This document shows, in pieces, positions 1,272 to 62,502 of a DNA stretch of 64,000 bases. Below the pieces are notes generated by a model, which was not told where the DNA came from, ran no database searches, and saw nothing but the letters and a program-made list of their open reading frames with translations. The stretch is from Candidatus Bathyarchaeia archaeon. Its GTDB lineage: Archaea > Thermoproteota > Bathyarchaeia > Bathyarchaeales > Bathycorpusculaceae. How positions within the stretch are numbered: the stretch's first letter is position 1; the number at the start of each line of letters is the position of its first letter. A program made the translations under genes and the position numbers. The stretch spans positions 64,001-128,000 of the forward strand of contig JAVZNC010000004.1 of NCBI GenBank assembly GCA_038882955.1, read 5' to 3'.

Positions 1272-2870
1272 TTAAATTAACTTTTGCCGCCTCAAAATCC
1301 TCTTTTTGGTTAGGAAATACACGATTACAGTGCTTGTCACCAGCGTTGTTATAATTGCGAGCGGCGTTAACTCTGGGATAAGGTTTGGAGATTCTCTGAT
1401 TGTCACTAAAAGAGCCACCTTTATGTGGTCTTCAAGGTCTTTAAGCTCAACCCAGTTTGGCGTAGTTGAATTGTCGTATGCTGTGTGAATCCAGCCAGCC
1501 TCACCCATAGTCCATAAATCGCTGTAGAAAAGCGGATAAGAGCAAAGCATAACACTTGACGGTACTGGCGTGGCATCAGAAATGCCCAAATTAACGCCCC
1601 AATAAGATGAAATGGCATTTTTAATACTGTTTGGTGTTCGGAATGATTCTTGGTCTGAACCGCCAGGTTCTTCTACATTAATACTTATGCCCAAGTCTTG
1701 AGACGCATTGATTATTCTCTGTGCTAAGTCGCTGTAGGGCGTATTCGTGACATATAGGTAGTCGCTTCCGATACAGTCTAGGTTGATTACGGCTGTTATG
1801 TTTGCCATTTCGCTTTTGTGTTGCGCCACGTAGTTTGCTGAGCCGACAAGGTATAATTCTTCTGCCGTGAAGGCTACGAAAAGAAGTGTGCGGTTTGGCT
1901 GGTAAAGACCGCTGTTAATGGCGTCGGTGATTACTTTTGCTATTTCGATTATCCCAGCCGTTCCAGCCCCGTTGTCGCAGAAACCAGCACACATAACAGT
2001 GTCGTAATGACTCGAAATTATCACAATATCTTCTGGATTTGCATATCCGCCTATTTTTCCAACAACATTGTAATGTGTTCCATCGCCTATAACAGCCCTA
2101 ATGGTAACGTTAGCAGAAAGCGCCGCATTGGTTCCTTCTTTCTCTCTGATTAGCAAGCCGTCCCAATAGTTCACAAAGCCGGCTGGAACATGGTAATCCC
2201 AGAAATATGAACCGTAGCTGCTTAACGGACGTCCACCCGCAGAATAATGCAGTGGCGGAGTGAAGTTTTTTCGATCCTCCCACCATGTGAAAACAACGGC
2301 TGCCGGCGTTTGATAACGCACTTTAGCCACCAACTTGTTTTCTTGCACTTCTCTGCCGATTAAAACAATCTTCCCAGTAGTGTCAATCGAGCTCCAGTCA
2401 TCATCCAGTGGCAAAACCACAAGGTCTGTGAAAACCCCGTCATCTGGTGTTGGCCAACTGTAATGTTCGCATTGGAAAGAGTCTATCACAGTCTGATCGC
2501 TGGTTGTACTTTGGTTTCCGTCCTCGTCGATAATTAGAGAAGGTTTTTCGCTTAGTGTCCAATTTTTGAAAGTGAAAGGCTCAAGCCAAGCATCCAAACT
2601 AAAACTCTCAAACTGCGCCTTAATCCAGTTCGCAGCTTCAAGTGCGCCTATAGAACCGGCAGAACGAAAATCTGGATGGGCGAGAGCGATGTTTTCCAAC
2701 TGCAAGTCGTAGCCATAAGCCCTAGTTCCATTAGCAAGCCCAACAATCTGCTCTTCAAGCGAACTCAAACCCGTACTCGTAGAACCATAAACAATGCTCA
2801 TGCGAAATGGAAGCAAAGGCGAAGCCAAAACCGAAAACCCCAACAGCAACACAAAAAATTGTTTCTTCAT
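1272..2870 (-). CDS. Secreted M28 family zinc aminopeptidase with PA-like domain and PEF-CTERM-like anchor
   Basis: Signal peptide; SSHYDT, DNGAG, AEE, NLDCIG, GSDQ and IHT motifs; C-terminal IPEL-TM-KKR. ATG at 2870 follows a GGTGAGG SD. Confidence 0.85.
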   Translation of the reverse strand: MKKQFFVLLLGFSVLASPLLPFRMSIVYGSTSTGLSSLEEQIVGLANGTRAYGYDLQLENIALAHPDFRSAGSIGALEAANWIKAQFESFSLDAWLEPFTFKNWTLSEKPSLIIDEDGNQSTTSDQTVIDSFQCEHYSWPTPDDGVFTDLVVLPLDDDWSSIDTTGKIVLIGREVQENKLVAKVRYQTPAAVVFTWWEDRKNFTPPLHYSAGGRPLSSYGSYFWDYHVPAGFVNYWDGLLIREKEGTNAALSANVTIRAVIGDGTHYNVVGKIGGYANPEDIVIISSHYDTVMCAGFCDNGAGTAGIIEIAKVITDAINSGLYQPNRTLLFVAFTAEELYLVGSANYVAQHKSEMANITAVINLDCIGSDYLYVTNTPYSDLAQRIINASQDLGISINVEEPGGSDQESFRTPNSIKNAISSYWGVNLGISDATPVPSSVMLCSYPLFYSDLWTMGEAGWIHTAYDNSTTPNWVELKDLEDHIKVALLVTIRESPNLIPELTPLAIITTLVTSTVIVYFLTKKRILRRQKLI

Positions 2871-2924
2871 TGAAACTGCCTCACCCAATAATCCACAAAG
2901 TGAACTAATAAGCCTAACGAAAAG

Positions 2925-2999
2925 TGGACCGGGGGGGATTTGAACCCCCGACCTCCTGAGTGCAAGTCAGGCGTTCATACCAAACTGAACTACCGGCCC
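2925..2999 (-). tRNA. tRNA-Ala(TGC)
   Basis: Cloverleaf GGGCCGG...CCGGTCCA with G3:U70; anticodon arm CCTGA-CT-TGC-AC-TCAGG; GTTCAAATC T-loop. Confidence 0.97.
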
Positions 3000-3104
3000 A
3001 GGACCATTCCAATATGAAAGAAAACAAGCCTTATCACATTTAGACGTTTCGGAACTCGATGAAAACTTAAGGATCTTTATGAATGGGGATTGTGGAAAAG
3101 TGTG

Positions 3105-4421
3105 TTATTGAAATGTTTCTCCGTAGTGTGTTGAGAGGATTATGGCGTCGAATATGTCTATTTCGCCTGTATTGTCAAGGTCTGCGTTTGGGTTCCAGTT
3201 TGGATCGCCTTGTTTGGCGCCGAAGGATGTGCTCAACAGTATAGCATCGTAAATATCCACTGTTCCATCACCGTTAACGTCGCCCGGAGCTCCAACATAA
3301 ACCAAGCCATAGTTTAGCGTATTATCTCCAATTTCTGTTTCGCCCGGAACTGGCTGGACGTAAGCCCATATTGTATAGTTGCCCTTGGCAAAGCCGGTTG
3401 TATCCCAGATGAAGGTTAGGGTTGCTGATACATCACTTCCTAATGTAATGGTCTGTGTTCCAATAATTGTTGCATTAGCATAAAGTTCAGCATTAATTGT
3501 TTCAGTGTAGCTACCTTGGTTTATTACTGTCACATTCAGGCTCATGTTAAGACCTTGAGCCAGCGCAGTTTTAGGTAATACTACTTCAACAATGCTTACG
3601 TCATGAGTGGTGGCGAAAGCATAGACATTGTGATTCCTTGAGCCAATGTAGAGAATGCCATCAGCAACGGCGGGAGAAACTGGACCTATTCCTCCGCCAG
3701 TTTTGTAATGCCATATCTGTTGTCCTGTTAGGGCATCCAATGCGTAAATAGTGCCATCCAGCGAGGCAACATACACCACATAATCACCAACAATAGGAGA
3801 GCATTCTACACCTGACTCTACAGAATTGCCGGTTGTAAAACTCCATACAAATTCAAGTGAAGGAGCACGCAATGCGTAAACCTTGCCGTCATCTGAGCCA
3901 AAATAGACCATGCCATAAGCAAAGGCAGGAGAAGAAAGTATCTGAAGACCTGCAGTGTAACCACACATTAATTCACCTGTTGTGGCATTCAGCGCCTCTA
4001 AATTGGCATTATACTCTCCCACATAGACTACACCATCAACAACAGCAGGAGAAGAAAGCACCAAAGAATATGTATTATAATACCATATTAGGTTACCTGT
4101 TGTGGCATTTAACGCGTAAACGGTACCATCTTGAGAACCAATATAAACTACACCATTCGAAACTGCCGGAGAGGAATCTACTGCACCACCAGTTGCGAAG
4201 ACCCATAAAGTATGGTTTGTTCTAGGTGCTGTTGAAGTGAAGTATCCCGTGTGAAATGGATCGTGATGAAACATAGGCCACCAATCAATTTCTCCAACCT
4301 GTACAGATTCACTCTGTTCAGCGGTCTCCATTTTTGCTTGTTGAATCTCAAATGAAAATGTTAACAAGCTTGTTAAAAATAGTGTTAGCATTATCCCAAA
4401 AATTATCCTTTTCACAAACAA
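3105..4421 (-). CDS. Secreted PQQ-like beta-propeller protein with CARDB/Ig domain and C-terminal dockerin-like domain
   Basis: Repeats SSPAV..GVVYIGS.DG.VYALNATTG..W; WPMFHHD; C-terminal GDVNGDGTVDIYDA / ADLDNTGEIDIFDA. Confidence 0.85.
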   Translation of the reverse strand: MFVKRIIFGIMLTLFLTSLLTFSFEIQQAKMETAEQSESVQVGEIDWWPMFHHDPFHTGYFTSTAPRTNHTLWVFATGGAVDSSPAVSNGVVYIGSQDGTVYALNATTGNLIWYYNTYSLVLSSPAVVDGVVYVGEYNANLEALNATTGELMCGYTAGLQILSSPAFAYGMVYFGSDDGKVYALRAPSLEFVWSFTTGNSVESGVECSPIVGDYVVYVASLDGTIYALDALTGQQIWHYKTGGGIGPVSPAVADGILYIGSRNHNVYAFATTHDVSIVEVVLPKTALAQGLNMSLNVTVINQGSYTETINAELYANATIIGTQTITLGSDVSATLTFIWDTTGFAKGNYTIWAYVQPVPGETEIGDNTLNYGLVYVGAPGDVNGDGTVDIYDAILLSTSFGAKQGDPNWNPNADLDNTGEIDIFDAIILSTHYGETFQ

Positions 4422-13417: not shown

Positions 13418-14368
13418 GTGGGTGAAAAGTTGAGCAACAAAGAAAGCGGAACTCGCCAAAGATTAATCGACAAATGTCCAGAATGCGGTAGTGTAAACCT
13501 TGTTCACGATTACGACACTGGAGAAACCGTCTGCGGCGACTGTGGACTTGTCCTCTACGAGCAGATGATGGATAAAGGACCAGAATGGCGCGCCTTCACG
13601 CAAGAGGAGAAAGCCTCAAGAAGCCGCGTTGGAGTGCCAACATCCTACTCCGTTCATGACAAGGGCTTGTCAACAGCCATAAGCCAAGTTGACAGAGACG
13701 CCTTTGGAAGAAAACTTCCACTCTCAACGCGCTTGCAAATGTGGCGGTTGAGAAAGTGGCAGATACGCTCAAGAGTGCACTCCTCAGTAGACAGGAACCT
13801 AGCCCAAGCCATGGCTGAACTTGACCGCTTATCAGATAAAGTGTATATTCCGCCGCCGATTAAGGAGAAGGCTGCAGTCATTTACCGCAAAGCCTTGGAT
13901 AAGGGACTCGTCCGCGGAAGATCGATTGCCGCCATTGCTGCTGCGGCGCTTTATGCTGCTTGCCGCGGAAGCGGAACCCCGAGGACACTGCGTGAAATCG
14001 CCGAGGCAAGCCTTGTTGACAAGAAGGATGTTGCGCGTTGTTATAGGCTTTTGCTTAGGGAATTATCAGTTCAAATGCCCATAGCAGACCCACTAACGTA
14101 TGTTTCAAAGATTGCAGAGAGAACTGGAATTTCTGGTAAGACGCAGGGAATCGCCATCCAAATCCTTAGAGAAGCCAGAGAGAAACGTGCTGCTGCGGGC
14201 AAAGACCCGATGGGTTTGGCTGCAGCTGCGCTTTACATTGCATGTTTGCAGAATAACGAGAAGAAGACGCAAAAGGACATTGCTGAAGCTGCTGGCGTTA
14301 CAGAAGTTACGGTGCGAAACCGCTACAAAACATTGAAGAAACAGCTAAACCTGGAGCTCCCAGATTAA
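13418..14368 (+). CDS. tfb: Transcription initiation factor IIB
   Basis: CPECG..CGDCG zinc ribbon, GPEWRAF, two cyclin repeats, VTEVTVRNRYK. Confidence 0.98.
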   Translation: MGEKLSNKESGTRQRLIDKCPECGSVNLVHDYDTGETVCGDCGLVLYEQMMDKGPEWRAFTQEEKASRSRVGVPTSYSVHDKGLSTAISQVDRDAFGRKLPLSTRLQMWRLRKWQIRSRVHSSVDRNLAQAMAELDRLSDKVYIPPPIKEKAAVIYRKALDKGLVRGRSIAAIAAAALYAACRGSGTPRTLREIAEASLVDKKDVARCYRLLLRELSVQMPIADPLTYVSKIAERTGISGKTQGIAIQILREAREKRAAAGKDPMGLAAAALYIACLQNNEKKTQKDIAEAAGVTEVTVRNRYKTLKKQLNLELPD

Positions 14369-53479: not shown

Positions 53480-53959
53480 TCACTTGATTAACCTTTTAAT
53501 TTCAGCAACACCTTTTTTTAGGTTTTTTATGTCCACATCACAGAATGGCGCTGAAATCCCAGTTTTATCCAATGCGAAATGCAGTTCTTCTATTAGTATT
53601 CCAGAGTTCTTCACACTGCAGCTTGGGCTGCCATCAACGCCCACAACAGCTTTTAGCTTTATCCCATGCTTTTCATATTCGCTAACCTGCCTTACAAGTT
53701 CTTCAGCAATCTTTCTGCACAAGCTTCTAAACTCTAAATTGTTATAGTCTTCCCTAGTTTTTGGCGCTCTCGCCAGCCCAGCGTATGCGAGTTCTGGACA
53801 TGGCATCTGAACCACACCGACGCCATTACGAACAAAAACCTCTACAACTTCGCGTATCACGCCAGCCCTTTCAGCCAGACCAAAAACACGCGAGTTCTGA
53901 TTTAAAATGCAATGCGCAACCAACACAAGTTTCCCGCCTTTATTATCCTCAAAAACCAT
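53480..53959 (-). CDS. DUF523 / TudS-related protein
   Basis: AHCILNQNS, QMPCPE, GSPSC. Confidence 0.82.
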   Translation of the reverse strand: MVFEDNKGGKLVLVAHCILNQNSRVFGLAERAGVIREVVEVFVRNGVGVVQMPCPELAYAGLARAPKTREDYNNLEFRSLCRKIAEELVRQVSEYEKHGIKLKAVVGVDGSPSCSVKNSGILIEELHFALDKTGISAPFCDVDIKNLKKGVAEIKRLIK

Positions 53960-53994: not shown

Positions 53995-54095
53995 TGGGGC
54001 CGAGGCCGGGATTTGAACCCGGGCACTAGGCTTGCTGCCTTGGATTGTGCTCCAGTCCACAGGCCTATAGGCTTCCAGGCTACCTCACCTCGGCC
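53995..54095 (-). tRNA. tRNA-His(GTG) with encoded G-1 and CCA, 24-nt intron at 37/38 (54033-54056)
   Basis: (G)GCCGAGG/CCTCGGC-C-CCA; TAGGC-CT-GTG-G^A-GCCTA; BHB with CTGT/GCAG central helix. Confidence 0.96.
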
Positions 54096-54100
54096 ACTTT
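54081..54100. repeat. att direct repeat within the tRNA-His 5' end and leader
   Basis: TACCTCACCTCGGCCACTTT, identical to 62483-62502. Confidence 0.95.
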
Positions 54101-54133
54101 TTCGGTGATTTCGGTTACTTTTTGTAGCTCTAA

Positions 54134-55453
54134 TCATTTTCGCTTCCTCAGAAATATTAGGTTATCTTTTTGGCATACATAGTCAAATCCGACTTCCAAT
54201 AAGGCTTTAACTTCCTCAGGCGTTTCAGCCACTTTAACTGTAAACTCATCGCTTCCCTGTTCAAACATTGTTCTTTCAATGTTAATGTAGATTTCCGTAT
54301 TTCTTAACTCTTTATGTCCTAAGAACTGCTTCACGTAATAGGGATCTTTAGTTTGATGGTAAAGCATTGTAGCCTTCCAATGTCTAAAAGTGTGAAAGCT
54401 TATGCTTAACAGTCTCGGATTTTGCAGTTTAGCAGCTAAACGCTTTCGCGCTTTTAGGAATGTTGTTTTCAACGAGTTTATAGGGCCATCTCCGAAAACT
54501 CGAACACTTTCTCTAGGCAAAGCGTTAAGCATAGCTGTTAATTTTTGACTTATCTTCCACATTCTCGGGTTAGAACCTTTCTCTGGATCGTTAAGCCTTA
54601 CGATGCTCTTTTCAAAATCTATATCTATCCATTGAAGCCTTTTCGCTTCTCCACATCTCATAGCTGTTTCTTTAAGCAACTGTAGAAACGTGCTGAGTTT
54701 CTTGCCTGTTCCAGATATCAAATCATCAAGTTCTCTTTCAGTCGGTATGAAAGGTATTTTCTGAGTTCGCGCTTTGCAGAATGGTTTATCCCATGTTAGG
54801 CCGTTAAATTTAAGGAAGCGGTCATAAGCAACTATAACGTTGCGTTTTCTGTTTTCACTCCATTTTTGTTTTGCTATGATTTCTTTAACATTTTCTGGAT
54901 CACACAAGTCTGCACCTCTCTGGATTAAGGTTGTTAATGCGGTTCTGTGAAGTCGAATTGTAGCTTCCGCGTAGCCTTTCTTCTGCATATAAAAGCAATA
55001 TTCAACGATTTTGCCTTTAGCGTCTTTAAGCTGCTCTGTGCCGCCCACACTCGGCCTTTCTAGTTGGGTTTCCACTTCGGCCAAGTTTTTCGCCTCGACT
55101 TCCGAGACGCATACTCGGCGTTTACTATTAGAGTAAGGTAAACTATTTAAGCCTTTTTCTGATACAGTAAGGTTATGCGAAGCTACATCTTCACCAAAAA
55201 AGAAAGAACCGTTATCAAAAACTTCCTTAACAAAACAGCCCCTAGAGACGATCCGCTTCTCATGGTTATTCTTTCGAGAATTAAAACCTTTAAAGATTTG
55301 GCTTCCGACATTGAACTTTATCTTGCGCTCAGAAAAGCGATATCCACATAACTTACATAAATAACGTTGAACTCCAAAACCATTCTTATCATATCTAAAA
55401 CCATCTTTCCAAAACTCTTTAGAACCACATTCAGGACAACACAGCTCAGTCAT
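54134..55453 (-). CDS. Tyrosine integrase with N-terminal zinc ribbon; possible short isoform from TTG at 55084
   Basis: ETAMRCGEA (R), EKGS (K), HTFRH, LGHK, TEIY (Y); N-terminal CPECGS..CKLCG. Confidence 0.95.
   Translation of the reverse strand: MTELCCPECGSKEFWKDGFRYDKNGFGVQRYLCKLCGYRFSERKIKFNVGSQIFKGFNSRKNNHEKRIVSRGCFVKEVFDNGSFFFGEDVASHNLTVSEKGLNSLPYSNSKRRVCVSEVEAKNLAEVETQLERPSVGGTEQLKDAKGKIVEYCFYMQKKGYAEATIRLHRTALTTLIQRGADLCDPENVKEIIAKQKWSENRKRNVIVAYDRFLKFNGLTWDKPFCKARTQKIPFIPTERELDDLISGTGKKLSTFLQLLKETAMRCGEAKRLQWIDIDFEKSIVRLNDPEKGSNPRMWKISQKLTAMLNALPRESVRVFGDGPINSLKTTFLKARKRLAAKLQNPRLLSISFHTFRHWKATMLYHQTKDPYYVKQFLGHKELRNTEIYINIERTMFEQGSDEFTVKVAETPEEVKALLEVGFDYVCQKDNLIFLRKRK
55175..55351 (+). 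CDS. 58-aa protein encoded antisense inside the integrase linker
   Basis: MRSYIFTKKERTVIKNFLNKTAPRDDPLLMVILSRIKTFKDLASDIELYLALRKAIST; TATTTAA box ~25 nt upstream (leaderless). Confidence 0.65.
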   Translation: MRSYIFTKKERTVIKNFLNKTAPRDDPLLMVILSRIKTFKDLASDIELYLALRKAIST

Positions 55454-55460
55454 TAAGCTT

Positions 55461-55595
55461 CTACTCCCTTACATAATCAACAATTTCCTCAATCTTCTGC
55501 TCAAGCAACGAAACACGATCAATAAGCTCCTCTACCTTCTCCTCAAGATCCGCTACCCGATTCTCTAACTGAAGCAACAACTTCAAACAATCCAC
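55461..55595 (-). CDS. 44-aa coiled-coil protein (missed by ORF track)
   Basis: MDCLKLLLQLENRVADLEEKVEELIDRVSLLEQKIEEIVDYVRE; AGGTG SD; regular heptads. Confidence 0.75.
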   Translation of the reverse strand: MDCLKLLLQLENRVADLEEKVEELIDRVSLLEQKIEEIVDYVRE

Positions 55596-55603
55596 ATTAA
55601 CAC

Positions 55604-58600
55604 CTACCACGGCGGCCCCACTCCTAACCCACTCAAAACACCAAAAAACAACCCAAATTCACTTTGATTTAATTCGATTTCATTGAAATTTTCAGAGTTA
55701 AAGCCATGCGCACCCGACCCTTCGCGCGGGTCACGTAACATATTAGTTAGGACAGACAGCAAACTCTCAACAAATTCAAACAGTTTAGGCGCTCGGATCT
55801 TATATAATTCTAACACGTTCAGCAGAGCTGCTAAAGGATTCGCCTTCCTATTATTGCTTCTGTGCGCGAAGCATTGAATTTCTAAACGACCCACAGGCTC
55901 ATTTTGCCATGCTTCAACAAAAGGCCGAAATCTTCTTAGAAACTCATGCCTTTTCAGATTAAACCTTCTATTGCGATCATAAAGCACAATATTACCTGAA
56001 ACAAAATATCGACTATCAGAAAGCACCCTTCCATTAATACCTATGAACCCTAAACCTTTTCTATAATCATATTCGTTTTGCTCGCACACCTCTTCAAACT
56101 CTTCTATCCTTTGTTTAATTTCGCTAGGCGGAATATCATAGGCTACGTCAAAACGGCAATACCGCGCATAAGGAATAACTTTCAATTCGACCTTTTGGCT
56201 GCAAAGCCATTTAAAAAGAATATTATCGGATTCCTCAACAACAACTTTTAACGCTTTATTCAATTCCGCTTCAAGCAATGCTACATCATCAAAGAAACAT
56301 TCAATAATTTTAACCAATGTTGAAGGCAACCATAAAGGCAATTCTCGGAAAACAAATTTTCTACGTTTAACCTGCATCCAATTAACCGCATCCCAGCTTA
56401 TGTGATACCTAACCTTATACGGAAACCTTTGAATCACATAGAACCGTCTTTGAGCAAAAGGCGATCTCTTTCTAGCTTTTCGCGGTAATTTCCACAGCAT
56501 AGGCTCATGTTCAATTAATTCCTTCTTTTTCACGTCAAGCGTATTAACCGTAAGTTTTACACCATAATTATCGCTATGGCCTAATTTGCCAATAACACGC
56601 GCTAGCAACCTCATCTTTTCATTAATCTCAAGCGGAATATGCAAAAGGCCCGCTTGACTGATCTGAGCCTCTAAAAATGTTGTGTCAGGCTTACCTAACA
56701 AAGGCGCAAAAACCTTAGCTGGAATATCCTTTTCTAAGTTACTCTTTTCAAATTTGAGATTTGCCGGCGATAACGGCCATAACTTACCTGCTAAATCTTC
56801 CAATGGCTCTTTAAGCTTAGACGCGAAATATACTCTTCCGCTTTTAGTAATTTCATAAACAACATCTTCAAAGCCTTCAATTGTTTGCATCATTTCCGCG
56901 TTAGTTTGCTCTTCATACATTGATGATAAAATCTGAGCTTCAACAACTGTTAGATCATAGCCTTTCTTATTTCTTATAAGGTTGAAAATTGCTTCCTTGC
57001 TGCTATATCCATAAGCGCGTAAATGCTCAAAAAATTCTAAAAACCATTGAGAAGTTGATAATTTCTTTGAAGGCTGCTTATTGAAACCGCACCAATTAGC
57101 AAGCTGCTTTATAAAACGGTTAAGCCTTAAAGATTCACCCCATCCGCCCGATTCTAACTCATCAACCAAAGCCTTAATTTCCAAATACCATTCGCGTTCT
57201 ATTTTCTTAATACGTGCGGAAATAGAGAGAGGATAAGAAAAGTAAAAGCACCATTCGCCTGATTCCGCATCCTTCAATAATTTACGCACAGCAGGAATAT
57301 TAGGCGTATTTTTCTGTTTTGTCACTTGCCTTATATCATGGATAGGCTGTCTTTCTGAATTTAAAAGAAAAGACTGAATGCGATTTTTCTCTCTTCCAAA
57401 TCCAGACCGTTCCGCACCTTTAATTATCCACTCTTCATTAGGCAATTTAACTGCATAACGTTTAGTGCGGAAAACCACAAGCTCAACCGCATCCGCATAC
57501 TCTTTTTTAGCGCCCCAAGGCGCAAGTTTGTTAAGAAGCCTCTTTAACCGCGCCTCCTCCTTTGCAGAACACACATAAGAATCCGTATCATGGTAAATTA
57601 AAGAATCCTTCAATTGCGATTCTATAAGCCATGACATTGTTCTCGCAAAAGCTGTCACATGAGCAGCTAAGGCTAAATTTGAAAACGTTTGATCTACATC
57701 ACATAAGAGACCTGTAACCGCATTTAAAGCGATTTTCAAAGATGTTGATAATTCCTGATTGGCCCTACGCATAGCATAGAATTCAGACCATTTCTTTGAC
57801 CATTCCTCATCTTTTGCATATAGAAATCCACAAGCATCTAAAATTTGCACACGTTTTAGCTGATTCTTTGACTGCAAAAACAAAAAGTAAAGTGGAAAAT
57901 TAACAACCATTCCCGCTTTAAAATTAACTAGACCTTCTGCTCGAGCTTGCTCTTCCCTTCGATTTCTATAAACTAATGTATAATACGAAAGTTTTCTAGA
58001 TTTCTTTTGCTTTTCCTTTAACACCTCAACTTTCCATGTTGAATTTTCCAAAAATTGAATTAGAACCCAAGAGGAAAGCGCTAAAACGGACATTTCTTGA
58101 TTAACATATAACCGTGAAAATGCTTCCACAGGGCCAACTTTTTTAATCAACTCTAAAATATGATTCGCGACAGATCTAGCTTCCTCTCCATAACAAAGCC
58201 TCATTGACCTAGGCGAAAACCTGCTCATAATACTCGGATATTCACTATTCACATCATAAAACACAAAATCTCTAAAACGGCTAACTTGCCACGCTTTAAC
58301 ACGTCCACCCGCATAAAATGCTGGAAAACTCGGAAATTTCGTATATGGTGCAACCAAAATCTTAGCAATCCTCGCACCGCTTTCAAATAATTTAATAGGT
58401 GAAATATGACTTTCAATAACCTCATAACGATTCTGTTTCAAAACAAAATTAACAAAATTAGCTTTTTCAAAACCTAAAACTTCTAAAAACATTGCCGCCT
58501 TTTCTAAACATCGAGAAAGCAACTCAAAACATGACAAAAGATCATACGCGTTATATTTGCGATTCAAAAAATCTTCCGTTTCTAACTTCTTAAAAAATAT

Positions 58601-59155
58601 GTTTGTTTCAGATTGGCTTTTTAGACTCCGTTTTTTTTCATCAAGCAAATTAGATGACAAACGCATGATATCAATCGCATAACTAACAACCCTCTCTTTT
58701 CGGAAAATATAATAACTAACTTTTTGATCTCCAAACCGCGTAAACCTACGCAATAAAATATCTCTAGCATCCTTTGAAAATGCACGGATCAAATCAAATC
58801 CATAATTAAAAGCTGCAAAAACAACAATCGAAGCATCCCCCACCAACGTATCAAGCTCAACTTTGGTTAAAGCATGATCATAATGATAAATTTCCAAAGT
58901 CGGATAAGATAAAACGCCAACAAGGCGCACATCATCCCTATTACTTACATCCGTCTCCACATCAAAGAGCAGCAATTTAAAATCTTGCATACTAGAACTG
59001 AGAAACGGTTTCAATAATTCCGAATATTTTTTCACTTTCTCAGCTAAAACTTGTAAATTTGCTTTTTCTTTATCATTCAAAATGTAAATTTGACCAAAAC
59101 TTTTATCTCCAAGTCTTAACAAATCTGATAATTGGATTCCCATGCGATCCCTCAC
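55604..59155 (-). CDS. Family B DNA polymerase fused to a Rep_trans-like rolling-circle initiator domain (likely ATG start 59143)
   Basis: Exonuclease: FDVET(65), FNYGFD(121), YNAYD(205). Polymerase: YAGGR(281), YDVNSEYPS(301), KIALNAVTG(474), YHDTDS(523), KRY(565). C-terminal: CRFDVAYD(1000), SRYFV(1050), IVLYDR, RLEIQ(1092). Confidence 0.85.
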   Translation of the reverse strand: MRDRMGIQLSDLLRLGDKSFGQIYILNDKEKANLQVLAEKVKKYSELLKPFLSSSMQDFKLLLFDVETDVSNRDDVRLVGVLSYPTLEIYHYDHALTKVELDTLVGDASIVVFAAFNYGFDLIRAFSKDARDILLRRFTRFGDQKVSYYIFRKERVVSYAIDIMRLSSNLLDEKKRSLKSQSETNIFFKKLETEDFLNRKYNAYDLLSCFELLSRCLEKAAMFLEVLGFEKANFVNFVLKQNRYEVIESHISPIKLFESGARIAKILVAPYTKFPSFPAFYAGGRVKAWQVSRFRDFVFYDVNSEYPSIMSRFSPRSMRLCYGEEARSVANHILELIKKVGPVEAFSRLYVNQEMSVLALSSWVLIQFLENSTWKVEVLKEKQKKSRKLSYYTLVYRNRREEQARAEGLVNFKAGMVVNFPLYFLFLQSKNQLKRVQILDACGFLYAKDEEWSKKWSEFYAMRRANQELSTSLKIALNAVTGLLCDVDQTFSNLALAAHVTAFARTMSWLIESQLKDSLIYHDTDSYVCSAKEEARLKRLLNKLAPWGAKKEYADAVELVVFRTKRYAVKLPNEEWIIKGAERSGFGREKNRIQSFLLNSERQPIHDIRQVTKQKNTPNIPAVRKLLKDAESGEWCFYFSYPLSISARIKKIEREWYLEIKALVDELESGGWGESLRLNRFIKQLANWCGFNKQPSKKLSTSQWFLEFFEHLRAYGYSSKEAIFNLIRNKKGYDLTVVEAQILSSMYEEQTNAEMMQTIEGFEDVVYEITKSGRVYFASKLKEPLEDLAGKLWPLSPANLKFEKSNLEKDIPAKVFAPLLGKPDTTFLEAQISQAGLLHIPLEINEKMRLLARVIGKLGHSDNYGVKLTVNTLDVKKKELIEHEPMLWKLPRKARKRSPFAQRRFYVIQRFPYKVRYHISWDAVNWMQVKRRKFVFRELPLWLPSTLVKIIECFFDDVALLEAELNKALKVVVEESDNILFKWLCSQKVELKVIPYARYCRFDVAYDIPPSEIKQRIEEFEEVCEQNEYDYRKGLGFIGINGRVLSDSRYFVSGNIVLYDRNRRFNLKRHEFLRRFRPFVEAWQNEPVGRLEIQCFAHRSNNRKANPLAALLNVLELYKIRAPKLFEFVESLLSVLTNMLRDPREGSGAHGFNSENFNEIELNQSEFGLFFGVLSGLGVGPPW

Positions 59156-59191
59156 ATAAAAAAGGGGAGATGAGCCGCATCACCTCAATTT

Positions 59192-59446
59192 TTAGTAAAC
59201 GTTGATCCAAGTGATGCGCGCTTTTTTGTTAGGCGCGGGAAGTTTCAGAACAATTTTATTGCCTTCTTTGCGACCCGAAGCTAAAACCTTCTCAATCAGC
59301 TCAGGCAAAATGCCATAACGGACTTCTTCACCCGCAACATTAGCCGTTAAGATCAGACATTCTTTGTTTTCTAAGCGACCCATGCGTGCGCTAACGATTT
59401 CAGCTTCAACCCGACTGCCTAACAAATCCTCAAGAGTTATAGGCAT
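59192..59446 (-). CDS. 84-aa beta-rich protein upstream of Pol-Rep (possible SSB/accessory factor)
   Basis: GAGGGA SD, ATG; function inferred from position only. Confidence 0.7.
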   Translation of the reverse strand: MPITLEDLLGSRVEAEIVSARMGRLENKECLILTANVAGEEVRYGILPELIEKVLASGRKEGNKIVLKLPAPNKKARITWINVY

Positions 59447-59868
59447 TCATATCCCTCTTTATGGCTTTGTCTAAACCACTTCGCGCCCCCGACCCCGAGG
59501 CCATGCAGGTTTGTAGCTCACATCCGCATCCTAGCAGGCGTGCTAGGCTTTTTAAAGGAAAAATTTTAACTAGAAATTGACATAAAGAATAGCTGGGTGG
59601 AAGGCAACCCACCGCATATTCAACATCTACCAGCCTACTTGCGTTCATGGGCCATCTTCCACCCTTTAGCCCTCTTTTTGCTTAACCTTCTTTTTGGCCC
59701 TACATCGCCTCTGAGCTTCTCTCCAATATTTACGCAAGATTTCTGGATGTTTGGGTTGTCGAGCCATTCTCAACCACAACAATACTATTAATCAATGACA
59801 AGGGTTAAATATGACTTCTGCTCATAGAAAAGTAAGCTAACTGACTTTAAAAGTGACGGAAAAGTAAG

Positions 59869-60504
59869 TTGTTAGGAATATTTAAAGGGAAAGAAGCGAA
59901 ATACAACAAACTTATCCTCAAAGCCCTAGTTTACGGCGCTAAAACTACAAACCAAATTGCAGAATTCATCTATCTTAACAAAAAAGCTCAAATCAAGCCT
60001 AAAAAGACTAACTTAAACGAAGTTAAGAAAATTGTTTCCATAATTTCGAGGAAGGGAAGCCGACTAAACGAGTTGGAAGCTAAACATTACATTTATCGAG
60101 AAAAAGGCTATTGGCATTTAACTGACAAAGGTTTAGCCGTAGCCCTAACACTTTTCAACGATTTAACTGAAGTATATCCATACGTAAGAACCGACTTAAC
60201 CCTCAAAACAATTGAAAAACTGTTTAAAAAATATGGTGTAAGCGAGACTCTTAGAAAATACGGCTTCAACGATTGGACATCTAAAATCTTCAGTTGGGCC
60301 AGAAACCGAAGAAATTTTCTCGGTTTCGTTAGGAATTCTACAAATAAACTGATAAGCCAACTTATAGATTTGGATTCGCTTAGTGAAAATGAATTTCAAA
60401 ACCTGCTAATTATTCATGGCATTCAAAATTTCTTTAAAATACAGTTAAATGAAATAGAACAAACTATTTCCGAAATAATCTTAAAAGAAAATATCAAGCA
60501 TTAA
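59869..60504 (+). CDS. Winged helix-turn-helix regulator of the element
   Basis: ILKAL..GAKTTNQIA...L.ELE.KHYI....W.LT.KG. Confidence 0.72.
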   Translation: MLGIFKGKEAKYNKLILKALVYGAKTTNQIAEFIYLNKKAQIKPKKTNLNEVKKIVSIISRKGSRLNELEAKHYIYREKGYWHLTDKGLAVALTLFNDLTEVYPYVRTDLTLKTIEKLFKKYGVSETLRKYGFNDWTSKIFSWARNRRNFLGFVRNSTNKLISQLIDLDSLSENEFQNLLIIHGIQNFFKIQLNEIEQTISEIILKENIKH

Positions 60505-60515
60505 TAAAAATACAC

Positions 60516-60683
60516 TTATGTAAAAGGATTTAACGTTTCTTTCCATGCATAAAAAAGCGCCCAATACGTTTTACGCCTCTCTTCGCCCTGCAGCTTCCTC
60601 TCATCTAAATATTGCTGAACAAACTTTGAGAATTCTTCAATATTCTTACACTTTTTAACATCTTCAAACTCAAGCATTTCCAT
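60516..60683 (-). CDS. Small hypothetical protein (55 aa)
   Basis: ATG overlapping the end of the upstream ORF. Confidence 0.6.
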   Translation of the reverse strand: MEMLEFEDVKKCKNIEEFSKFVQQYLDERKLQGEERRKTYWALFYAWKETLNPFT

Positions 60684-61236
60684 TTTTCCCTTCCAAAACC
60701 TTTGAAGCTTCACGCAGCAATAAAGCCGTTGCCCGCTTAAATTTTGGATAAAGCAGTTGGGAAGCCTCAAGATATTCTTTAAATAAGCCATCATTCACGC
60801 CTTCACAGTTTACAGTTTCAGTTTTAGGCTTATCCGCTACGCCTCTCCTCTCTTTCATTTTCCTCAGCAAACTTGTAGGATTCGTTTTAATTCCCATTTC
60901 CCTAAGCTTTTCAGCTATACGCCTATAACCTAACCCTTCCTTCTGAAGCTTCTCAATAAGTTGAAACGTCTGCTCATTCCACATGATAGGCTTCAATTCT
61001 TTAGGCTGTTCTGAAGGTTCAAGCGTAAGCGTAGCCTCTGTTTGGTTATTACTGTTAGGCTTCTTTAAGAAAAAGAATAGTTTGCCATTATAAGATTGCT
61101 GGAAAACCTTAACGCCTTCCGCCTTCAACTGCTCATTCCACTCGGATTTAAAAGCTGAATGCGGAATCAAAAGGCAAGCGCCAAAATCAGTCATTTCCTC
61201 TGGATAGGATTCACTTAGGATTTCGTATAAAACCAT
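60670..61236 (-). CDS. HTH-containing protein
   Basis: LQKEGLGYRRIAEKLREMGIKTNPTSLLRK. Confidence 0.72.
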   Translation of the reverse strand: MVLYEILSESYPEEMTDFGACLLIPHSAFKSEWNEQLKAEGVKVFQQSYNGKLFFFLKKPNSNNQTEATLTLEPSEQPKELKPIMWNEQTFQLIEKLQKEGLGYRRIAEKLREMGIKTNPTSLLRKMKERRGVADKPKTETVNCEGVNDGLFKEYLEASQLLYPKFKRATALLLREASKVLEGKNGNA

Positions 61237-61523
61237 TTTACCCCTAAAAATAAATATGCAATTCCAAATTTAAATTTTAATATTTATGTTTAAATATGCT
61301 TCAGGTATGCTTCAAAGCATATGCGGTATATATTTATGTTAATTAAATAGGTGACAAAAATCGATAAAATTCTGACTTCTTCTTGTTTAATCAACAATTC
61401 ACTTCCTAAAAGAAAATAAACGGAAATAAAACGATATTTAAACTTAGAGAAGCTCAAAATGAAGAGATTTTCTCCTATAAAAATTAATTAAATTCACATG
61501 TGAAATGATGATTTAGGCAACTG

Positions 61524-62171
61524 TCACGTTTTCTTCGTTTCCCTCTCAATTATGTCTAAAGCGAAACGCCTAAGATAGTTGAAGCCCGTCTGGTAGCTTT
61601 CCAAATCTAAACGCCTCTGCACTTTAAAAGCACCTATAATGGTTGAGTCTTGTTTTATGATGTCCGCGGCTACGGTTTCCCTGAACAAGTGCATCCAGAT
61701 TTTAGGCGATAAACTTCTCACTATGTTGAACAGTTGCCTATCGGATAAATGTTCATTTGGAATTATGACTATGTTTCCAAACACGCTTCTAACCGAAGGG
61801 AAAAAATACTGTGGCTTAGGCTGTAAACCGTTCAAGTAGCTAAGATATTCCAATATTGGCTTTGCCAAAGGCTCAGTTAAGGATACGCTTTTAATTGACT
61901 GTTTCGTTAAAACCGTCTTCTTCCGTTTCTTCAAAAGCGTGAAGCGGATATGAAGCATACCCTCTTCAACTTCAAAGTCGCTTAACTCAAGCCGCGCTAA
62001 TTCGCTTCGCCTTTTACCTGTAAGCCTCAAAATGCAAAGTAACGCTTTAGCTCTCAGCTTGAAAAACACGTTTGGTATGGCTTCAGCTTTAGCTAACAAT
62101 TCGCTAAACTCTTCCTCGCTAATCACAGTTTTTCTCTGTGTTCTATCCAATAGCCCTCTAACATGCGTCAT
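61524..62171 (-). CDS. Second tyrosine recombinase, catalytic domain only (215 aa)
   Basis: LTGKRRSEL (R), LLKK (K), HLFRET, GFNY (Y). Confidence 0.88.
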   Translation of the reverse strand: MTHVRGLLDRTQRKTVISEEEFSELLAKAEAIPNVFFKLRAKALLCILRLTGKRRSELARLELSDFEVEEGMLHIRFTLLKKRKKTVLTKQSIKSVSLTEPLAKPILEYLSYLNGLQPKPQYFFPSVRSVFGNIVIIPNEHLSDRQLFNIVRSLSPKIWMHLFRETVAADIIKQDSTIIGAFKVQRRLDLESYQTGFNYLRRFALDIIERETKKT

Positions 62172-62174
62172 GTT

Positions 62175-62258
62175 TCATTCTCTCCCTGTAATGTCTAATG
62201 AATCTAACAAAAGCGAAGCGAAAAGGCTAGAGCCGTCGATCACAAAGTCATCTGACAT
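62175..62258 (-). CDS. 27-aa acidic peptide ORF
   Basis: AGGTGA SD; MSDDFVIDGSSLFASLLLDSLDITGRE; abuts the recombinase start. Confidence 0.45.
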   Translation of the reverse strand: MSDDFVIDGSSLFASLLLDSLDITGRE

Positions 62259-62397
62259 AATCACCTACCCTCTTTATTCTACGCTTATCCTTCTCTAAAC
62301 ATTCATTTATCATAACGTTCTCAAGCTGAAGCTGATACAAAACTTCACGGTTAATCTTGTATTCTAAACTACGCTTCCTTCTCCTTTTTTCACTCAT
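62248..62397 (-). CDS. 49-aa basic peptide ORF
   Basis: GGTG SD; MSEKRRRKRSLEYKINREVLYQLQLENVMINECLEKDKRRIKRVGDYVR. Confidence 0.5.
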   Translation of the reverse strand: MSEKRRRKRSLEYKINREVLYQLQLENVMINECLEKDKRRIKRVGDYVR

Positions 62398-62482
62398 TCA
62401 AAACACCACTTTCCATAAATTGAAAAACAAAAAAGGAGTTAGTGTGGGTTTTAAGTGGAGAAATCTCCACTCTCAGCCGATT

Positions 62483-62502
62483 TACCTCACCTCGGCCACT
62501 TT
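62483..62502. repeat. att direct repeat (duplicated tRNA-His 5' fragment)
   Basis: TACCTCACCTCGGCCACTTT, identical to 54081-54100. Confidence 0.95.

Follow-up and report, generated by a model that had tools for sequence, protein, structure and literature searches.

A family-B DNA polymerase fused to a candidate Rep_trans-like nicking domain in an integrative element of Bathyarchaeia

The locus

The sequence analysed here, referred to as the window, is a 64,000-nucleotide stretch of contig JAVZNC010000004.1 from Candidatus Bathyarchaeia archaeon (GCA_038882955.1). Within it lies an 8.4-kb element that encodes, among other products, a large protein of 1183 amino acids (aa) in which a family-B DNA polymerase (PolB) is joined to a C-terminal domain resembling the Rep_trans initiators of rolling-circle replicons. 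Two direct repeats border the element, one of them at a host tRNA gene, and the genes between the repeats include two tyrosine recombinases and a small conserved protein that precedes the fusion gene. The coordinates of these features, of the regions within the fusion protein and of the codons for its proposed active site are collected in Table 1.

Table 1. Features of the 8.4-kb element, with positions given in window coordinates.
Feature	Position	Strand	Description
Host tRNA gene	53998-54094	-	integration site at its 5' end; Rfam RF00005, 44.9 bits, E = 4.3e-7
Left 20-bp direct repeat (attachment site, att)	54081-54100	.	overlaps first bases of the tRNA
int1, tyrosine recombinase	54134-55453	-	439 aa; Pfam Phage_integrase E = 1.7e-16; PHROGs integrase E = 5.2e-21
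PolB-Rep fusion gene	55604-59155	-	1183 aa from GTG; relatives all fused
Rep_trans-like core	55751-56458	-	aa ~900-1135; proposed active site D922, D1003, Y1059, E1092
Codon of E1092	55880-55882	-	
Codon of Y1059	55979-55981	-	
Codon of D1003	56147-56149	-	
Codon of D922	56390-56392	-	
Variable helical insert	56861-57223	-	aa ~645-765; between polymerase and C-terminal region
Family-B DNA polymerase part	57236-58993	-	aa ~55-640; exonuclease I-III, motifs A, B, C, KxY
Conserved 84-aa protein	59192-59446	-	directly upstream of fusion gene
Structured nucleic-acid element	59447-59552	-	predicted, 4 helices; directly upstream of 84-aa gene
211-aa open reading frame (ORF)	59869-60504	+	opposite strand; no family match
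o188, 188-aa ORF	60670-61236	-	weak helix-turn-helix-like; Pfam DUF6471 E = 1.2e-4, below cut-off
int2, short tyrosine-recombinase-like	61524-62171	-	215 aa; Pfam Phage_integrase E = 1.2e-10
Right 20-bp direct repeat (att)	62483-62502	.	exact repeat of 54081-54100, spacing 8402 bp

The fusion gene and its polymerase part

The likely start of the fusion gene is the ATG at 59141-59143 (residue 5), a start shared by the relatives; residues are numbered throughout from the GTG. A search with aa 800-1183 matched 12 proteins, all of 1065-1213 aa and 43-92% identical, one of which is named as a protein of a Bathyarchaeia metagenome-assembled genome (MAG). A search with aa 1-640 returned 14 proteins within the same length range, comprising those 12 together with P0151 and P0016. 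All 14 relatives, drawn from NCBI, JGI, ENA and Logan sources, have the fused architecture, the searched range being 650-2071 aa and PolB-only relatives shorter than 650 aa lying outside it. The initial annotation had considered that the fusion could be a product of assembly and had proposed looking for it in other archaeal MAGs. The fusion is real and stable and not an assembly artefact, since every one of the 14 relatives from these several sources shares it. Contigs from other sequencing runs also extend across the junction region, such as X4 (56377-56911 and 56900-57361).

A profile of the C-terminal region was compared with 1.84 billion representative proteins of any length and matched 19 proteins, three of which are full-length fusions. 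Matches P0003, P0011 and P0014-P0018 were inspected singly, and the 12 shortest (45-156 aa, P0019-P0030) were not; the shorter matches P0014, P0015, P0017 and P0018 are fragments of the fusion family. The family is rare and sporadic: within the class, 3 of 401 genomes carry it, and a genome of the same genus lacks it. No relatives appeared in a scan of viral contigs, and the ESM Atlas gave no usable match.

Judged by its motifs, the region of residues ~55-640 is a very divergent, motif-complete family-B DNA polymerase. The exonuclease residues of ExoI (DxE; D65, E67), ExoII (Nx2-3[FY]D; N117, F120, D121) and ExoIII (Yx3D; Y201, D205) are invariant in the 13 aligned relatives, and so are those of motif A (DxxSxYPS; D301, S304, Y306, P307), motif B (Kx3Nx3G; K474, N478, G482), motif C (YxDTD; Y521, D523, T524, D525) and the KxY motif (K565, R566, Y567, within TKRYA). 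PHROGs DNA-polymerase families match the fusion protein, with E-values down to 7e-10. A family profile run against the PDB retrieved 32 sequences at E ≤ 10, all of them named as DNA polymerases or engineered threose nucleic acid polymerases, the best being the family-B polymerase 5mdn_A (E = 2.5e-6). The Pfam family DNA_pol_B_2 matched below its cut-off (E = 0.026, 13.8 bits versus 25.8). These data bear out the polymerase assignment made in the initial annotation, with its exonuclease I-III, A, B, C and KxY motifs. The helical insert that follows the polymerase is missing in 3 of the 13 aligned relatives (P0010-P0012).

The C-terminal domain and its relation to Rep_trans initiators

Four strings occur in the C-terminal region in the order given for them in the initial annotation: CRFDVAYD (1000-1007), GINGRVLSDSRYFV (1039-1052), IVLYDR (1056-1061) and GRLEIQ (1089-1094). 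The plasmid record of pT181, fetched for comparison, shows that its RepC protein carries TRLDLAFD, GRNGKPETKYFG, IRIYNK and WRVEIE, so the motifs quoted in the initial annotation were correct. The nucleophile of RepC is Tyr191, located inside IRIYNK and not in ETKYFG (Carr 2016; Wang 2026, PMC13107129), and the metal ligands of Rep_trans initiators are described as D46, D142 and E214 (Carr 2016). The strictly conserved or catalytic residues named in that account are R140, D142, A144, D146, Y191, K193, R212 and E214 (Carr 2016), which correspond to R1001, D1003, A1005, D1007, Y1059, R1061, R1090 and E1092 in the fusion protein, respectively.

Conservation across the 17 family sequences follows this correspondence. 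R1001, D1003, D1007, Y1059, R1061, R1090 and E1092 are invariant (17/17), and position 1005, equivalent to A144, is Ala in 13 sequences and Ser in the other 4. The basic residue two places after the tyrosine, K193 in RepC, is Arg rather than Lys in every member, and the equivalent of T176 is S1048 throughout (17/17), a conservative change. D922 is likewise invariant (17/17); an extended hhalign alignment tentatively pairs it with D46, with near-zero column confidence and in a stretch that is unfolded in the structural model. When the nine positions invariant in an alignment of four Rep_trans sequences were compared, six were invariant here, one was Ala or Ser, one had changed from Lys to Arg, and R189 had become Val.

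The catalytic assignments can be revised in this light. Because Tyr191 of RepC lies in IRIYNK, Y1059 is the equivalent of the nucleophile, and not Y1050, the predicted nicking tyrosine of the initial annotation, which corresponds to Tyr178. Among the three metal ligands predicted there, D1003 and E1092 match D142 and E214, whereas D1007 matches D146, which is strictly conserved in Rep_trans but is not among the three ligands named (Carr 2016). Conservation had been expected at R1001, D1003, D1007, Y1050 and E1092, and it is complete at all of these positions except Y1050.

We compared an alignment of the family (17 sequences, aa 880-1150) with nine diverse Rep_trans proteins in hhalign. A search for RepC homologues had given only proteins at least 86% identical, and seven plasmid Rep genes were taken instead, the broken gene of a further match (L016) being left out; a scan for further Rep_trans diversity found none. 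The comparison gave a score of 31.8 (P = 0.0014), a value reached by none of 273 column shuffles (maximum 23.4), while the reversed alignment scored 17.7. Extended at a loose threshold, the alignment was collinear and placed all five motifs in order. We also composed an ordered motif pattern after inspection of both families. Among 2792 ORFs from all six frames of the genome, this pattern matched one, the fusion ORF. It matched none of 55,840 shuffled ORFs, 8 of the 9 Rep_trans proteins and 13 of 15 fusion-family members.

Structural models of the region were made with AlphaFold2. The mean predicted local distance difference test (pLDDT) score was 46.7 for aa 764-1183 and 62.6 for aa 880-1150, and within the core (aa 999-1134) block means were mostly 64-94, with short stretches under 50 around aa 995-999 and 1100-1104. 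The highest Foldseek matches, none of them significant, include 4jhy, titled TBP-like (TATA-binding protein-like), along with Bet v 1/PYL, PGM-type mutases and DUF302, families that we take to belong to the TBP-like fold. A0A345MSC1 (326 aa, probability 0.77), second in rank in BFVD, is unnamed and nothing was drawn from it. In the core, a strand (RFDVAYDI) is followed by a helix, two short strands, a strand (NIVLYDR), two helices, a strand (GRLEIQCF) and further helices, so that RFD, LYD and RLEIQ are each on a predicted strand. This order matches strands 6, 8, 10 and 11 (within strands 6 to 11) as described for Rep_trans initiators (Carr 2016). In Rep_trans initiators the sheet is crescent-shaped and made of two five-strand modules with TBP-like topology; D46 is on strand 1, T176, Y178 and G180 are on strand 9, and R212 and E214 are on the final catalytic strand.

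Several observations weigh against a relationship to Rep_trans. At the level of residues, R189 is replaced by V1057 in 17/17 sequences, the Tyr178 equivalent Y1050 is kept in only 11 of 17, and G180 is not kept, position 1052 being Val, Met, Ile or Leu. The RIEFNPN motif of Rep_trans has no clear counterpart in the C-terminal region, where the first five-strand Rep_trans module was not identified either. The models are poor outside aa 999-1134, including the unfolded D922 stretch, and Foldseek with both models found nothing at E ≤ 0.001 in the PDB or BFVD, with no RepD or RepSTK1 chain among the matches listed, down to about rank 50. The hhalign probability is just 17.7%. Pfam gave no match for the C-terminal region, PF02486 (gathering score 29.6 bits) and PF25227 included, when the protein and eight C-terminal fragments were scanned at E ≤ 10, the sole match among the fragments being a spurious one to Stonustoxin. 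A six-frame search of the genome with PF02486 returned nothing at E ≤ 0.01, with a positive B. subtilis control, and a PDB sequence search with the C-terminal profile was empty. The fusion ORF ranked 41st of 2792 ORFs against a Rep_trans hidden Markov model (HMM; E = 15), and in the reverse HMMER search Rep_trans proteins ranked 9th to 514th of 2801; neither result is significant. No Rep_trans protein was present among the inspected matches of the C-terminal profile in the 1.84 billion representatives.

Overall, homology of the C-terminal domain to Rep_trans is only moderately supported. The Rep_trans assignment of the initial annotation is favoured by the conserved residues and the collinear hhalign alignment, but not by Pfam, HMMER, the PDB sequence search or Foldseek. 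An HUH-type Rep was also considered and rejected, as Pfam showed no Rep_1, Rep_2 or Viral_Rep match.

Proposed replication mechanism and alternatives

We consider it slightly better than an even chance that the element is an integrative circular replicon, copied in rolling-circle fashion from a nick by the polymerase and the Rep_trans-like nickase together. The replication module would be a two-gene operon encoding the 84-aa protein and the 1183-aa replicase, the latter combining a proofreading PolB (aa ~55-640) with a distant Rep_trans (TBP-fold) domain at its C-terminus (aa ~900-1135). Once the element has been excised to a circle, the C-terminal domain would cut one strand of the origin by means of Y1059 and a metal ion held by D1003, E1092 and probably D922, and would then remain covalently attached to the 5' end. 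Strand-displacing extension of the freed 3'-OH would fall to the polymerase part, either of that molecule or of a partner, and the Rep domain would finally close the displaced strand.

The structured element upstream of the 84-aa gene is a candidate either for the origin at which such initiation would take place or for a leader RNA. A stretch of ~95 nt is conserved in six loci, and 12 of its 24 base pairs show compensatory change. Of the alignment cells, 93.7% are paired, compared with 81% in shuffles, a level reached by 0 of 500 shuffles, and slid controls gave 40-53%. Some pairs are invariantly G-U, so that only the sense strand can adopt the fold, and no Rfam family corresponds to the element.

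Base composition provides a weak hint in the same direction. Across 54134-62171, a bias of G over C and T over A at third codon positions tracks the DNA strand and not gene orientation. On the coding strand, the third-position G/C (GC3) skew is +0.50 for the fusion gene, +0.49 for o188 and +0.21 for int2, with +0.04 for int1, 0.00 for the 84-aa gene and -0.34 for the opposite-strand ORF; host genes range from -0.27 to +0.32. Among loci L003-L010, five relatives show the same bias (+0.36 to +0.57). Asymmetric replication would account for such a bias, though the bias is no proof of it. Two findings count against the proposed replication mode: three of the nine family loci (L007 +0.11, L009 -0.11, L010 -0.01) lack the strand skew, and a circular junction was not seen in the assembled contigs of four sequencing runs, which were used in place of raw reads.

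The strongest alternative, unlikely in our estimation though it deserves weight, is that the C-terminal region is a family-specific DNA-binding or origin-recognition module, or a protein-interaction module, rather than a nuclease, with its likeness to Rep_trans due to chance or convergence and priming carried out by a host primase or another protein of the element. The uniformly negative Pfam, PDB-profile, 1.84-billion-protein profile, HMMER-rank and Foldseek results would be expected if this were so, as would the low hhalign probability, the loss of R189 and the failure to identify the first Rep_trans module. In contrast, eight Rep_trans signature positions occur in the right order and spacing, seven of them in 17/17 sequences and one as Ala or Ser, and the positions kept include the tyrosine and two acidic ligands, each on a predicted strand. 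A pure binding domain is unlikely to hold an invariant Tyr, Asp and Glu at these places, and the shuffles that never reach the HMM-HMM score (0/273), together with the ordered pattern that matches the fusion ORF alone among 2792 ORFs, also speak against mere chance.

An improbable alternative is that the polymerase primes itself like the piPolB of pipolins, or acts in repair or damage tolerance, with an unrelated role for the C-terminal domain. The lifestyle is indeed pipolin-like, in that a PolB gene travels with a tyrosine integrase and the target is a tRNA (PMC5695915), but piPolB lacks KxY and has KTRG instead, while K565-R566-Y567 is invariant here in 13/13 relatives, and no piPolB is found among the relatives of the polymerase part. 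Most improbable of all is a protein-primed replicase in which an invariant C-terminal Tyr or Ser primes in cis in the manner of a terminal protein, by analogy with linear plasmids whose terminal protein is fused to the polymerase: the only Pfam match on the full protein, DNA_pol_B_2, is of the organellar and viral protein-primed type, though weak, and several C-terminal tyrosines are invariant (Y996, Y999, Y1031, Y1059), but the direct repeats at a tRNA and the tyrosine recombinases imply a circular form, terminal inverted repeats are missing, cellular archaeal PolBs head the PDB matches, with no phi29-type enzyme among the 32 at E ≤ 10, Pfam scans of the fusion protein and the element ORFs gave no terminal-protein family, and known fusions of terminal protein and polymerase carry the terminal protein at the N-terminus.

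Several known systems come close to the element, and each differs from it. Rep_trans proteins (PF02486; pT181 RepC, pC221 RepD, RepSTK1 and the MOB_T relaxases) resemble the C-terminal domain in how the signature residues are ordered and spaced, that is, RxDxAxD, an [ST]xYF stretch, a tyrosine with a basic residue two positions on, and RxE[IV][EQ]. They also resemble it in the strand-helix-strand succession predicted for the second module and presumably in metal-plus-tyrosine chemistry. They differ in that the domain of the fusion is C-terminal in an 1183-aa protein of an archaeal host, is joined to a polymerase, and lacks a PF02486 match, R189, G180, RIEFNPN and an identified first module. 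Moreover, known Rep_trans proteins recruit a PcrA-type helicase and a polymerase from the host, whereas the fusion carries its own polymerase.

The Rep-Arvir proteins (DUF7845, PF25227) are initiators of archaeal viruses and plasmids, described as TBP-fold relatives of Rep_trans that sequence searches miss; the integrative elements in which they occur encode tyrosine integrases and have a conserved hairpin close to the rep gene (PMC13107129). In contrast to the C-terminal placement in the fusion, they stand alone, with an N-terminal catalytic domain followed by a winged helix-turn-helix (PMC13107129). PF25227 has no match on the fusion protein and none in 301 genomes of the phylum, the source genome included, with a positive Haloferax control. 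The main text of that paper contains neither 'PolB' nor 'fused' (PMC13107129).

Pipolins are likewise small and self-replicating, carry a PolB gene and a tyrosine integrase, insert at tRNA genes and are circular when free (PMC5695915). However, they are bacterial or mitochondrial, and piPolB, with KTRG in place of KxY, primes de novo (PMC5695915), whereas the present element is archaeal and its polymerase has a canonical KxY and a Rep-like domain. Casposons and protein-primed PolB elements are also self-synthesising with their own family-B polymerase, and some are archaeal; the present element differs from them in its direct repeats, its tyrosine recombinases and its lack of terminal inverted repeats. 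A Pfam scan of neighbouring ORFs did not find Cas1. We therefore rejected a casposon for want of Cas1 and terminal inverted repeats, a Polinton for want of terminal inverted repeats, and a pipolin for the canonical KxY (K565-R566-Y567, 13/13, not KTRG), and the distinction from all three drawn in the initial annotation holds. Its authors knew of no PolB-Rep_trans fusion replicon, and our full-text literature searches, which reached few subscription journals and no supplements, likewise found no PolB fused to Rep_trans or to another rolling-circle initiator.

Known rolling-circle replicons use the host polymerase and host helicase, and known PolB-encoding elements prime by a terminal protein or de novo. 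A polymerase-nickase fusion would, if real in function, join the two strategies in one protein. We tentatively suggest, at somewhat less than an even chance, that it represents a further way for PolB to start synthesis, in addition to RNA/DNA primers, terminal proteins and de novo priming, with a self-carried Rep_trans-type nickase in a one-polypeptide, helicase-free rolling-circle replisome, and a new class of self-synthesising integrative elements in archaea (Bathyarchaeia, with remnants in Methanotrichaceae). This would explain how a small archaeal element replicates in hosts that possibly have no PcrA-type partner, and would extend the TBP-fold initiators of archaea (Rep-Arvir, 2026) to a third, more divergent branch. 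Isothermal amplification could also profit from such a protein, a compact, nick-primed and strand-displacing enzyme of hot-spring origin.

Borders, gene content and relatives of the element

The locus is best explained as an integrative, plasmid-like element of 8.4 kb whose borders point to insertion at the 5' end of a tRNA gene through the action of a tyrosine recombinase. A circular form is implied because direct repeats at the tRNA occur together with tyrosine recombinases, and no terminal inverted repeats are present at the element ends. The G+C content, about 44% elsewhere, is down to 36-41% from 54 to 62 kb. The flanking host genes are of ordinary archaeal kinds and were identified by eye as aIF2-beta-like and aIF1A-like genes, a Rio-type kinase and a KH-domain protein. 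The 97-nt tRNA gene was missed by ARAGORN and may hold an intron.

The 84-aa gene precedes the fusion gene in 9/9 loci with upstream sequence, and its product has no Pfam, PHROGs or PDB match. The int1 protein has a zinc-ribbon-like stretch at its N-terminus, and a relative of it is found in 5 of 11 metagenome loci; int2 is also present in loci L004 and L006.

Two contigs from hot-spring runs skip 8349 and 8490 bases, from about 54101 to 62451 and 62593, respectively. Their shorter sides measure only 27 and 20 letters, under the threshold set by the tool, and they are no more than a weak hint of empty sites. The four sequencing runs were used as Logan contigs, in which depth does not represent copy number, and none of the runs listed was of RNA. 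In the genome of the same genus (G616), the tRNA match lies at a contig start and shows no clean empty site.

In locus L004 a near-identical tRNA 5' fragment comes after int1 and is contiguous with it within the element, which is what an attP arrangement would show. Its element is bracketed by an exact 76-bp repeat (4298-4373 and 13816-13891), and its gene order is circularly permuted relative to the window. Just outside lies an 833-aa primase-like ORF (1635-4136, PHROGs E = 1.5e-17) that may be part of a second mobile element.

Frameshifted remnants of the C-terminal domain were observed at 3126-3950 of L001 and 10001-10240 of L002, both from Methanothrix/Methanotrichaceae MAGs. The L002 remnant adjoins a gene like that at 53480-53959 of the window, which suggests that a second phylum once received insertions at this kind of site.

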